This document shows, piece by piece, positions 39,665-45,056 of a stretch of 64,000 bases of DNA. A program made the translations under genes and the position numbers. This DNA comes from a bacterium (lineage in GTDB: Bacteria > Bacillota > Clostridia > Oscillospirales > Oscillospiraceae), in NCBI GenBank assembly GCA_963595735.1, contig CAVBJJ010000006.1, forward strand, positions 14,694 through 78,693, given 5' to 3'. Positions within the stretch are counted from its first letter, which is position 1; every line of letters starts with the position of its first letter. The notes beneath the pieces are model-generated. The model saw nothing but the letters and a program-made list of their open reading frames with translations. It made no database searches and was not told where the DNA came from.

Positions 39665-40034
39665 GACTGTCAAAAAACTATATAGTGTAGTACCTGCCCT
39701 TGGCTCTCCCTTTGGGAGAACTGTCGCCGCAGGCGACTGAGAGGGTTCGGCAGATAATCACGCCCCACGGGGTTCCTATGGTATGGTCATTGTTTCCCCT
39801 CTCCGTCTTCGCTGCGCTCAGCCACCTCTCCCAGAGGGAGAGGCACGGCTGTCAAAAACAGCAGGCAGTATCGTTTCCCGCAGCAGCGGGTGGAGTTTGA
39901 GGGGGGCAAGCCCCGCCTCAATGAGATAACCCGCCGTGGAAAGCCCATTTTGGGCTTTCCCACAGTATTTTGGCTGCGCCGAAATACGCGGCGGATAAGC
40001 TTGTCAAAAAATTCCCAGACCTTTTTGACAAGCT
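39665..40034 (+). repeat. Structured intergenic repeat, copy A (contains a nested 121-bp insertion)
   Basis: Aligns by eye, in reverse complement, with 44801-45012. Bounded by CTGTCAAAAA .. TTTTTGACAAG. Carries several hairpins, including CTCTCCC-ttt-GGGAGAG and GGAAAGCCC..GGGCTTTCC. Confidence 0.8.
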
Positions 40035-40707: not shown

Positions 40708-40783
40708 CGGGGTGTGGCGCAGTTGGTAGCGCGCATGGTTCGGGTCCATGAGGCCGTGGGTTCAAATCCCGCCACTCCGACCA
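40708..40783 (+). tRNA. tRNA-Pro (anticodon CGG), CCA encoded
   Basis: Hand-folded cloverleaf. Acceptor CGGGGTG/CACTCCG; D arm GCGC-AGTTGGTA-GCGC; anticodon stem CATGG/CCATG with loop TT-CGG-GT; T arm GTGGG-TTCAAAT-CCCGC; discriminator A plus CCA. Confidence 0.9.
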
Positions 40784-40889: not shown

Positions 40890-42180
40890 TTGCTCCAAAA
40901 CTCTCAAAATGCGAAACTAATATTTTTATACAAGGTCGTTATTTGAACACAGCTTTTTCATAAACCAGCCCAATAAGCTTCCTCGAATGCCGTTGGTGTC
41001 TTGTATTTCAAAGTCCGATGAGGACGAAGCTCATTGTAAAATTGGATGTACCGCTCCACGCTTTTGCGGTAGCTTTGTTCTGAGGTGTACTCTCTGCGGT
41101 ACGCCTCCTCTTTTTTGAAGGAAGCAAAAAATGCTTCAGCCACCGCATTGTCATGCGGACGTGCCGTAGCGGAAAAGGACTGCTTCACGCCGCACTTTTG
41201 CAGGAGCGCTGTAAATGCAGCCGAGGTGTACTGTTTTCCGCGGTCGCTGTGAAAAGTGAGGCCGCTGGGCTCTCCGCGTTCCCGAAAAGCGGCCCGAAAC
41301 GTGCTGGTGACTAAATTGGTGCTTGCGTTACGGGATACCCGATGGCCGATGACCTTGCGGGAGAAAAGATCCAGGATGACGCAAAAGTAGACCCAGTAGT
41401 CATTGACCTTGAAATACGTAACGTCACTGACCCAGAACTGGTTTGGATGATCTGCGGTGAACTGTCGCTCCAACAGGTTTTGCTTTTTATTATACTGTTG
41501 CTGTTTCTTGTATTGCTTCTTGGCATCAGGGCAGATGCTGTGCAGGTCCAGTTCCTGCATGATTGCTGCAATGCGTTTGGTGCTAACCCGGACACCGCTC
41601 TCAGCCAGAGTGATGCGGATTTTTTCAGCACCAAATCGCTGAGCGCTGTCATCAAAGACCTGCTGCACGAGCCGCATAAGCTGCGCCTGTTCCTGATCAC
41701 GCTTGCTGTGGTCCGCCCGGCGGAAGATGTGGTTGTAAAATGTACCACGAGCGACATCTAACGCTTTGCACAGCTCGTGAACGCTATAAGTATTATCCGA
41801 TTGGTGATAGAGGTTTTCCAATATGGAAAGCCTCTTCTGCAGGGGAACACTCGTTATACACTGTGAAAGGCGAATGATTTCCATTTCATGTTCCAGTTTT
41901 GTTAGCCGTCTTGAAATGCTATCAAACTCCTTTGGCGTGTAGGTGCGGTTTGTTCCTTGGATAGTGCAGTACTCCTTCCGCCAGCGGTAAAGTGTTCCCT
42001 GAGCAATGTGCAGTTCAAGGCTGAGAGATTTGATGGATTCTCCGCTTTGATAACGCTTAATGACTTTTTGCTTGAAATCTGCCAGGTACTTGGTGGGCAT
42101 GGTCTCATCTCCTTGCATGTGATGAGATTATTGTAAGCTGGTATTTAGAGTGAGAAAAGAGTTTTATGTGTCTATAAATA
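40890..42180 (-). mobile_element. IS3-family insertion sequence (ends approximate)
   Basis: Contains a single transposase ORF. Only a short shared terminal motif (AAAACTCT near 40897 and, inverted, near 42172) could be found by eye, so the boundaries are uncertain. Confidence 0.6.
40958..42100 (-). CDS. IS3-family transposase (HTH plus DDE/rve domains in one ORF)
   Basis: 380 aa. N-terminal HTH (..SIKSLSLELHIAQGTLYRWRKEY), then the rve core (..FWVSDVTYF..LTFHSDRGKQYTS..HDNAVAEAFF..). ATG 42100 follows a GGAG RBS. Confidence 0.9.
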   Translation of the reverse strand: MPTKYLADFKQKVIKRYQSGESIKSLSLELHIAQGTLYRWRKEYCTIQGTNRTYTPKEFDSISRRLTKLEHEMEIIRLSQCITSVPLQKRLSILENLYHQSDNTYSVHELCKALDVARGTFYNHIFRRADHSKRDQEQAQLMRLVQQVFDDSAQRFGAEKIRITLAESGVRVSTKRIAAIMQELDLHSICPDAKKQYKKQQQYNKKQNLLERQFTADHPNQFWVSDVTYFKVNDYWVYFCVILDLFSRKVIGHRVSRNASTNLVTSTFRAAFRERGEPSGLTFHSDRGKQYTSAAFTALLQKCGVKQSFSATARPHDNAVAEAFFASFKKEEAYRREYTSEQSYRKSVERYIQFYNELRPHRTLKYKTPTAFEEAYWAGL

Positions 42181-42587: not shown

Positions 42588-43472
42588 ATGCCACAAAATG
42601 ATAAGATCCAACTGTTCGAAGACAAGCGTATTCGTACCGCATGGGATGAAAAAAAGGAAGAATGGTACTTTTCTATCGTTGATGTGGTAGCTGTGCTGAC
42701 TGATCAGCCGGATCAGCGCCATGCGGCGAAATATTGGAGTGTTCTCAAGACTCGCTTAAAAAAAGAAGGCAGTGAGTTGACTACAAATTGTAGTCAACTG
42801 AAAATGCGCTCCGCAGATGGCAAGCGATACAATACCGATGTAGCCGACACCGAGCAGCTTCTCCGAATCATCCAGTCCATTCCTTCCCCGAAAGCAGAAC
42901 CGTTCAAGCTGTGGCTGGCGCAGGTCGGTCGGGAGCGTATCGAGGAGACCATCGACCCGGAGCTGACCATTGACCGCGCTCTGGAAACCTATCTCAAGAA
43001 GGGGTACAGCCGTGAGTGGATCAACCAGCGGCTGCAGGCCATTCAAGTTCGCAAAGAACTGACGGATGAATGGGATGCCCGCGGTGTGCAGAAGGGCATC
43101 GAGTACGCCATCCTCACAGATGAGATCTCCCGTGCATGGTCCGGCATGTCCACCCGGCAGTACAAGAATCTGAAGGGCTTGAAAAAGGAAAACCTTCGTG
43201 ATAACATGACGACACTGGAGCTGGTACTGAACATGCTGGCGGAGGCGACTACCACTCAGTTTTCAAAAGACCGCAAGCCGACGACCTTCCAAGAGAATCT
43301 GGCAGTTGCCAAGGCGGGTGGCCAGGTTGCCGGACGAACCAGAAAAGACATTGAGTCCCAGTCAGATACGCCAGTCATCACCTCCAAGAACGCCGCACAG
43401 CTCCAGCAGGTCGTGACAGACCTGCTGGAAAGCGCAGTCTCTGACACAACTGAAGAATCAAAAGACAAGTAG
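42588..43472 (+). CDS. Bro-N domain / DinD-like (DNA-damage-inducible protein D family) protein
   Basis: 294 aa. N-terminal ..FEDKRIRTAWDEKKEEWYFSIVDVVAVL.. is Bro-N-like. C-terminal ..YKNLKGLKKENLRDNMTTLELVLNMLAEATT.. parallels E. coli DinD as I recall it. RBS GGAG. Confidence 0.7.
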   Translation: MPQNDKIQLFEDKRIRTAWDEKKEEWYFSIVDVVAVLTDQPDQRHAAKYWSVLKTRLKKEGSELTTNCSQLKMRSADGKRYNTDVADTEQLLRIIQSIPSPKAEPFKLWLAQVGRERIEETIDPELTIDRALETYLKKGYSREWINQRLQAIQVRKELTDEWDARGVQKGIEYAILTDEISRAWSGMSTRQYKNLKGLKKENLRDNMTTLELVLNMLAEATTTQFSKDRKPTTFQENLAVAKAGGQVAGRTRKDIESQSDTPVITSKNAAQLQQVVTDLLESAVSDTTEESKDK

Positions 43473-43554
43473 GCTCTGCGCATCAAGTTTTCTTGCTGTC
43501 ATACACCGATTTTTTGAAAACAATTTCAAAAAATCTATAGTGTTGAGTTATGAC

Positions 43555-43588
43555 ATCGGTGAGTCCTTAGGGGACTCACCGATTTTTT
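43555..43588 (+). terminator. Terminator after the dinD-like gene
   Basis: ATCGGTGAGTCC-ttag-GGACTCACCGAT followed by T6. Confidence 0.8.
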
Positions 43589-43692
43589 ATTGCTCATTTG
43601 TAAATTTTTTGATTTTGTTGCACGGAAATATACAACTTTTCGCCATTTACATCCTATATGTAGAAGACCCGTTTTTACATATAGGAGGAAAT

Positions 43693-44247
43693 ATGATATA
43701 CTACAAACAATGCAGCGGGACGCTTCTGCCGCAGAAAGCAGCAGAGCTACAAAACTGGGTGCAATGGACACACCACGCCGAGGACAAGACCCATTGCGAG
43801 GAATGTCTAAAATTAGATGGTCGCTGGTTTCAAAAGGAAAAAGCTCCCCCTTGCCCACATCATCCCTATTGTCATTGCACATTGGAGCCGATCGACCATA
43901 CTGTCGTTCTTGCAAATGCGACCACATGCAGCAGCTACAGTAAGTTTGATCCATACCTGTTTAACACTACTGGCGCATATACACACGGAAAAGAAGAGCT
44001 GTTCAAATTATGGGGGTATGCGGTTGAGGATATTCCTTGGCTCAAAGCTGAGATAGAGCGACAATCATTGGAGAAATATCTATCTGGCGATTATACATTG
44101 GGAAAGCTTGATAAAAACGGTCAAAGAATCAATATACGAATCGCCATTCAACGAAGAGGTACCGGTGAGCTTGTAACATTTCTGTCTGGTTGGATAGCTC
44201 GCCCTAATGAACTCTTGCAAATGACTACACCATATGGAGATGATTGA
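43693..44247 (+). CDS. MuF-type Cys/His knuckle fused to a DUF6883-like C-terminal domain (hypothetical, toxin-like)
   Basis: 184 aa. Contains HCEECLKLDG..PCPHHPYCHC, then KFDPYLFN..GKEELFKLWGY..RINIRIAIQ..LVTFLSGWIARPNELLQMTTPYG. AGGAGG RBS upstream of ATG 43693. Family names are from memory. Confidence 0.65.
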   Translation: MIYYKQCSGTLLPQKAAELQNWVQWTHHAEDKTHCEECLKLDGRWFQKEKAPPCPHHPYCHCTLEPIDHTVVLANATTCSSYSKFDPYLFNTTGAYTHGKEELFKLWGYAVEDIPWLKAEIERQSLEKYLSGDYTLGKLDKNGQRINIRIAIQRRGTGELVTFLSGWIARPNELLQMTTPYGDD

Positions 44248-44248
44248 C

Positions 44249-44532
44249 ATGAAAGAATTAGATTGTGTTGAAGTTATTGTGGAGAAAAAAGTGTATGCCC
44301 GCGAAGGCGTACATATTGGTATGCAAGGTTGGATCTGCTTTGATGAATGTGCCGATGGTTATTGGCTTGTAAACTTTCCGCAGTATGGAGAAAAAAAGAT
44401 ATTGCAACCATATCCGTGAAAGAAGATGATGTGAAGATAATCCCACGAATGGATGCACAAATCAATGAGAGAATTAAAGCTCAGTTTGATAATCTGGAAA
44501 ATTCAGATGATTTGAGCGGGTATATGGTTTAA
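44249..44532 (+). pseudogene. DUF4926-like small gene interrupted by a -1 frameshift at A_AAA_AAG (pseudogene or programmed frameshift)
   Basis: Frame 0 (MKELDCVEVIVEKKVYAREGVHIGMQGWICF..YGEKK) stops at 44419. The -1 frame continues from 44398 (DIATISVKEDDVKIIP..) to 44532. The A7 run lies at 44391-44397. Confidence 0.6.
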
Positions 44533-44800
44533 TAGATACTTGAGTTAACAACCGCAATAACATTGGTACAAATTGTCTGATCTAATTGGATAAAAACCTC
44601 TTGCCGACTGCCAGAAAACCGTTGATATATCTGCGTTTTCTGAAATTCTATAATTACACTCCGGCCAAAAACCGGAAAATTTCTACGGAAACTTGCCGGT
44701 TTTTCATTTTATTTGCTTGTTTCTTCGCGCAGCAGATCATCCCTGTTCCATGCTGTAATTTTGCTGGTCAGAAATAGGTTTAATCGGACGCCCAGTACCG

Positions 44801-45012
44801 GCTTATCCGCCAGTATTTTGAACAAGCCAAAATACTGTGGGAAAGCCCAGCGGGGCTTTCCGCGGCGGTCTATCTGATTGAGGCGGGTCTTGCCCCCTTC
44901 AAGCTCCCCCGCTACCGCGGAAAACGATACTGCCCGCTGTTTTTAACAACCTTGCCTCTCCCAAAGGGAGAGCCAAGGGCAGGTACCCCGTTACATAGTT
45001 TTTGGACAGACT
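44801..45012 (-). repeat. Structured intergenic repeat, copy B (inverted relative to copy A)
   Basis: Its reverse complement aligns with 39665-39719 plus 39835-40000, at roughly 80-85% identity by eye. Contains the same 22-nt core and the same hairpins. Confidence 0.8.
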
Positions 45013-45014
45013 CA

Positions 45015-45056
45015 GCAAGCCCTGCACAGCGTTTTTTGTGTAGGGCTTGCTTTTTT
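45015..45056 (+). terminator. Hairpin with a T-run on the plus strand only
   Basis: GCAAGCCCT..AGGGCTTGC followed by T6, between repeat copy B and the stop of the minus-strand permease gene. Confidence 0.55.

Follow-up and report, generated by a model that had tools for sequence, protein, structure and literature searches.

A homopolymer contraction that mimics a slippery site is the probable origin of a frameshifted putative immunity gene in an Oscillospiraceae bacterium

Within a 64,000-nt stretch of an Oscillospiraceae genome, which we refer to as the window, a short open reading frame ends soon after an in-phase A_AAA_AAG heptamer, and the remainder of what appears to be the same gene continues in the −1 frame. 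Is this a site of programmed ribosomal frameshifting that yields two isoforms, a slippage-prone switch on a putative immunity gene, or simply a decay mutation or sequencing error? All three readings had been put forward in a first-pass annotation of this DNA, and here we weigh them against the relatives of the locus, its neighboring genes and its own genome.

The zero frame opens at ATG 44249 (MKELD...), with an alternative in-frame ATG upstream at 44234, and closes with CAG TAT GGA GAA AAA AAG ATA TTG CAA CCA TAT CCG TGA, the stop codon occupying positions 44417–44419. Counting from the ORF start, (44390 − 44234) = 156 = 3 × 52, which confirms both the position and the phase previously ascribed to the heptamer. 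Read in the −1 frame from 44398, the sequence continues as DIATISVKEDDVKIIPRMDAQINERIKAQFDNLENSDDLSGYMV to a stop at 44530–44532, and the product joined from 44249 is 94 aa long, in agreement with the length and end point first proposed. The two flanking elements that had drawn attention to the site are a GGAG at 44387–44390 and a GATAT/ATATC pair at 44398–44402 and 44410–44414. In the window’s own genome, residues 1–54 match the protein family described below with E = 1.5 × 10−32 and residues 46–94 with E = 1.4 × 10−24, in different frames. Because both halves match one protein family, the two-frame layout is not a chance overlap of open reading frames but a genuine frameshift inside a real gene. 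The coordinates of the gene and its surroundings are collected in Table 1.

Table 1 Positions of the small gene, its frameshift site and the neighboring features, in window coordinates.
Feature	Position	Strand	Remarks
tRNA gene	40708..40780	+	RF00005, 65 bits; left border of low-GC islet
IS3-family transposase	40958..42118	−	rve, HTH_Tnp_1; islet edge
Bro-N / DinD-like gene	42588..43472	+	Same low-GC islet
Toxin-type gene	43693..44247	+	184 aa; MuF-like Cys/His knuckle and DUF6883 (BECR-Tox3)
Zero-frame ORF	44249..44419	+	Truncated 56-aa product, MKELD...GEKKILQPYP
A7 homopolymer	44391..44397	+	Site of the probable one-base loss; closest relatives have A8
Heptamer A_AAA_AAG	44392..44398	+	X_XXY_YYZ phase in the zero frame
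−1-frame continuation	44398..44532	+	The family’s conserved C-terminal 44 aa (strands 4–5 and helix)

The joined protein belongs to a family whose members, roughly 82–116 aa in size, run through the point of the break. Searching with the 94-aa sequence returned 1759 homologues at E ≤ 0.001, the best of them 96–98% identical over 100% of the length. The junction PQYGEKKDIATISVK is unbroken in all 22 aligned homologues and is among the best-conserved parts of that alignment, with D51, I52, and A53 invariant. In an AlphaFold2 model (mean pLDDT 72), the protein is predicted to form a small SH3-like barrel of five strands (residues 7–11, 26–29, 38–44, 52–58, and 62–65), with a helix at residues 70–84 after the fifth strand. 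Set against this model and the 22-sequence alignment, a break after residue 50 costs the protein its last two strands and the helix, together with 13 of the 33 invariant columns, bearing out the earlier suggestion that the segment beyond the shift is the natural C-terminus of the protein. The 56-aa product keeps only strands 1–3 of the predicted barrel and, as modeled, is unlikely to fold. A fold search of the PDB returned weak, generic SH3/KOW/NdhS-like matches (best E = 0.016), and the joined protein had no match in Pfam, NCBIfam, or PHROGs. The same genome also holds an intact paralogue on contig C1 (87 aa, 60% identical) with no toxin gene upstream, a copy that we considered as a possible source of cross-protection.

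The gene order at the locus points to a role for this protein. The stop codon of the upstream toxin-type gene lies 1 nt before the ATG of the small gene, and its product scores 26.8 bits with DUF6883 (PF21814), just below the cut-off of 27 (E = 6.6 × 10−6, 86 of 110 profile positions); related toxin-type proteins are annotated ‘DUF6883 (weak)’. Its Cys/His knuckle resembles the end of Phage_Mu_F (E = 0.0034), and its PHROG matches are head-morphogenesis families. DUF6883 has been assigned to the BECR-Tox3 ribonuclease toxins, for which a recurrent downstream DUF4926 gene and MuF fusions have been noted (bioRxiv 10.64898/2026.08.28.747851). The window’s small gene occupies the DUF4926-type position, directly 3′ of a DUF6883/BECR-Tox3 gene, and in most of 80 related loci a toxin-type homologue immediately precedes the small gene. 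Since it directly follows a MuF-knuckle/DUF6883 toxin gene, the small protein is, by gene order alone, most likely the cognate immunity protein of the upstream toxin. The pairing occurs in gut bacteria of the Oscillospiraceae and Acutalibacteraceae. Just 3 matches to the module were found among viral contigs, so it is not typical of recognizable phage contigs. In a group of relatives that carry an A8 run at the frameshift site (L097–L106), the pair sits between a ParE/PhdYeFM toxin–antitoxin pair and a PNP_UDP_1 phosphorylase gene, a different neighborhood which indicates that the two-gene module moves between contexts as a unit. At other loci the small gene is intact beside a toxin-type gene that is truncated to 124 aa (L099) or split into two ORF fragments (L007, 3501–3999), a pattern typical of orphan immunity genes. 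A modest by-product of this survey is thus a family of ~1759 proteins, without a Pfam match, that is paired consistently with short MuF-knuckle/DUF6883 (BECR-Tox3) genes.

The first-pass annotation had called the protein DUF4926-like, and this label holds in part. The Pfam DUF4926 model (PF16277, gathering score 29.1 bits) found no match among 22 family members at E ≤ 10, nor any match at this locus when run over the window’s own genome. Gene context speaks for the label, as does a partial profile–profile match: hhalign of the family (A1) against three DUF4926 proteins gave a probability of 74.8% (E = 2.6 × 10−5), but the match spans just 25 N-terminal columns. In the same class, true DUF4926 proteins have N-terminal starts similar to that of the window protein; one bona fide member (L095) also begins MKELD, and a second (L094) directly follows a DUF6883-like C-terminus. 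The name ‘DUF4926-like putative immunity protein’ is reasonable for a protein that lies outside the Pfam family as modeled, and the small-protein family probably extends the DUF4926 immunity family.

Comparison with close relatives locates the difference in the A run itself. The closest of them, L004, is 98% identical to the window in a 500-nt alignment and ~96% identical over ~1 kb, and the run differs by a single 1-nt gap, reading GAA AAA AAA GAT in L004. Altogether, 20 contigs from different ENA/Logan samples, ~94–96% identical where measured, carry A8 (GAAAAAAAA, again GAA AAA AAA GAT), and five, from Flintibacter faecis and four JGI metagenome contigs, carry GGGAAAAAA (GGA GGG AAA AAA GAT). 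Among the contigs compared, A7 (GAAAAAAA) is limited to the window and one Logan contig (L091, SRR13434700), which is 100% identical to window positions 43181–44892 (1712 nt) and hence represents the same strain. The A8 and A7 counts refer to contigs that were retrieved for members of the same 90% cluster. A8 accounts for 20 of the 21 tract alleles sampled, and neither A9 nor A6 occurs among them. Farther out, ~100 more distant copies in 80 genome loci are each single-frame, with varied, non-slippery codons at this point (GAA AAA GAT, GAA AAG GAC, GAC AAG CCG, and others), and in sister lineages the tract is replaced by GGGAAAAAA, GAAAAGAAA, GAAAAAGAT, and others. The heptamer and the two-frame layout are therefore not conserved: relatives are single-frame with either A8 or non-slippery codons, and A7 is unique to this strain, which is the pattern that the first-pass annotation had itself named as telling against a programmed frameshift.

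A programmed −1 ribosomal frameshift of the dnaX/IS3 type, which would generate 56-aa and 94-aa isoforms, is already contradicted by these comparative data, as no orthologue examined shows the two-frame arrangement. The heptamer does have the correct phase, the intact toxin ORF means that some immunity may be needed, and the only lysine tRNA found was tRNA-Lys(UUU), in a draft genome whose set of 38 tRNAs is incomplete and may simply be missing tRNA-Lys(CUU). The stimulators, however, fall short. In dnaX, a Shine–Dalgarno-like element stimulates the −1 shift from ~10–14 nt upstream, and very short spacing favors a +1 shift; here the GGAG ends 1 nt before the heptamer. Stable downstream structure is also missing: the calculated free energy of the 5-bp AT hairpin formed by GATAT/ATATC is 0.0 kcal/mol, and the 72 nt downstream fold no better than shuffled sequences (z = −1.13; 26 of 200 shuffles did equally well). 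A search of Rfam returned no frameshift element, only tRNA. Moreover, the GGAG and GATATTGCAACCATATC occur equally in the A8 relatives, where they encode YGE and DIATIS. Both elements that had been proposed as stimulators are thus present, but their spacing, stability, and Rfam result do not support a stimulatory role. The shorter isoform would, in addition, lack two of the five barrel strands. We regard programmed frameshifting here as extremely improbable and, judging from the sequences compared, conclude that the locus is an ordinary frameshift mutation and not a programmed recoding signal. As the contraction creates an in-phase A_AAA_AAG by chance, some full-length protein may still arise; such traces, made through spontaneous ribosomal or transcriptional slippage, would be incidental rather than programmed.

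The distribution of alleles also bears on a phase-variable switch, in which slipped-strand mispairing between A8 (on) and A7 (off) would toggle the immunity gene. A coding A8 run is mutable, and one off allele has been seen, but the near uniformity of A8 between samples, with no other length apart from the single A7, speaks against toggling. Because the tract varies from lineage to lineage, there is no sign that mutability has been selected for, and turning an immunity gene off would bring no obvious benefit. We consider such a switch quite improbable.

Alternatively, the strain may really carry A8 and an intact gene, the homopolymer having been under-called by one base, or A7 and A8 may coexist in the population. 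Homopolymer indels are the commonest assembly error, an intact toxin ORF fits an intact immunity gene, and this genome has far fewer A8/T8 runs than A7/T7 runs (23 versus 497). Several observations weigh against such an artefact, which we judge unlikely. The Logan contig L091, built by a different, k-mer-based assembler, has the same A7, albeit possibly from reads shared with the genome. Of the 560 homopolymers of 7 bases or longer in the genome, 393 fall within open frames of at least 200 codons and leave them unbroken, and adding one homopolymer base would join 83 pairs of ORFs versus 81 for removing one, giving no excess in what is a crude and noisy genome-wide test. Finally, the substitutions peculiar to this strain, set out below, affect invariant residues of the toxin and the portion of the small gene beyond the break, and are consistent with real decay. 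Broken down by base, the genome (G000) has 240 A7 and 257 T7 runs versus 16 A8 and 7 T8 runs, and the step from six to seven bases is only about four-fold; the sharp drop from seven to eight could reflect either selection against long runs or sequencing bias.

Compared with L004 and the L097 group, the toxin-type gene has ten amino-acid changes specific to the window. Its non-synonymous to synonymous ratio of 10:4 is similar to that of L004, 7:3, both being small counts. Four of the window’s residues, C44R, M168I, G173E, and L177M, fall at columns at least 90% conserved in 50 relatives; Cys is present at position 44 in 48 of 49 relatives, Met at position 168 in 45 of 49, and Gly at position 173 in 49 of 49, and C44R, M168I, and G173E are not seen in the nearest relatives, L004 and the L097 group. 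The small gene has two window-specific changes, R71Q at a conserved Arg and P83L, both of them non-synonymous and both in the out-of-frame part. Few as these substitutions are, their placement at invariant residues of the toxin and beyond the break in the small gene agrees with real decay. On this pattern of substitutions the toxin partner may already be inactive, and loss of immunity would then probably be tolerated.

The counterpoint to decay is that the toxin ORF is full-length. If its product is active, a cell lacking immunity would be expected to die, which would argue for residual frameshifting or a sequencing error. It is very improbable, in our assessment, that the toxin is active and A7 is kept by efficient −1 slippage that provides low, tunable immunity, or that A8 and A7 form a contingency switch. 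Were this so, the locus would represent a recently arisen recoding dependence in a toxin–immunity pair, or a contingency switch acting on an immunity gene.

The small gene sits on an acquired islet. GC content at the locus is ~39–47% compared with ~57% for the genome, and the small protein was not found in 40 related genomes from the genus and family. In Flintibacter faecis (L007), an ORF of Bro-N size, like the one upstream of the toxin-type gene here, separates two toxin/small-gene pairs. At the islet edge, a single 386-aa reading frame encodes both the HTH and the rve domain of the IS3-family transposase, in place of the usual orfA/orfB frameshift arrangement. Downstream, positions 44780–45040 form one copy of a dispersed ~120–175-nt repeat that is also present at 39665–40000 and at ~87144–87200 of contig C1 of G000; blastn gave 82 matches at 78–92% identity on many contigs of the genome, one of them beside the intact small-gene paralogue on C1. 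The repeat matches no Rfam family and resembles a REP/MITE-like intergenic element more than it does ends specific to the island.

Our preferred reading, which we hold to be probable, is that a strain-specific, unselected contraction from A8 to A7 has frameshifted the putative immunity gene of a decaying DUF6883/BECR-Tox3 cassette. In the closest lineage, Glu-Lys-Lys happens to be spelled GAA AAA AAA, giving a run of eight adenines. One adenine would then have been lost in this strain, most likely through replication slippage, after which the zero frame would stop after 56 aa and leave the last two predicted strands and the C-terminal helix out of frame, in a cassette that appears to be decaying on a low-GC islet near a tRNA gene and an IS3 element. 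With single-frame homologues throughout and A7 confined to this strain, it is the last of the three original readings, decay mutation or sequencing error, that gains support, whereas the programmed frameshift does not, given the single-frame homologues, the A8 relatives, and the failure to find stimulators. Accordingly, the appropriate annotation is a frameshifted (pseudo)gene for a putative immunity protein, not a recoding site. The case has little importance beyond correct annotation, other than as an example of a homopolymer contraction that passes for a textbook slippery site.

Set beside known systems, the site shares with the A_AAA_AAG sites of dnaX and IS3-family elements an identical heptamer in an identical phase; it differs in that the frame split is not conserved, the Shine–Dalgarno-like element is misspaced, and there is no stable stem-loop or pseudoknot. 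As in homopolymer frameshift pseudogenes and contingency loci, a one-base change in a coding mononucleotide run truncates the product; it differs in that the one A7 allele is the only length variant seen and that lineages do not share the tract. The module resembles DUF6883/DUF4926 systems in that a DUF6883-type protein with a MuF-like Cys/His motif is followed by a small, beta-rich protein beginning MKELD. It departs from them in three ways: the toxin-type protein is a short, 184-aa stand-alone protein without a full MuF domain, the small protein is unmatched by Pfam DUF4926, and the small gene is frameshifted in this strain. Many related loci (for example, L010, L022, L045, and L007) hold two to four copies of the small gene, and in this respect several of them are like immunity-gene arrays.
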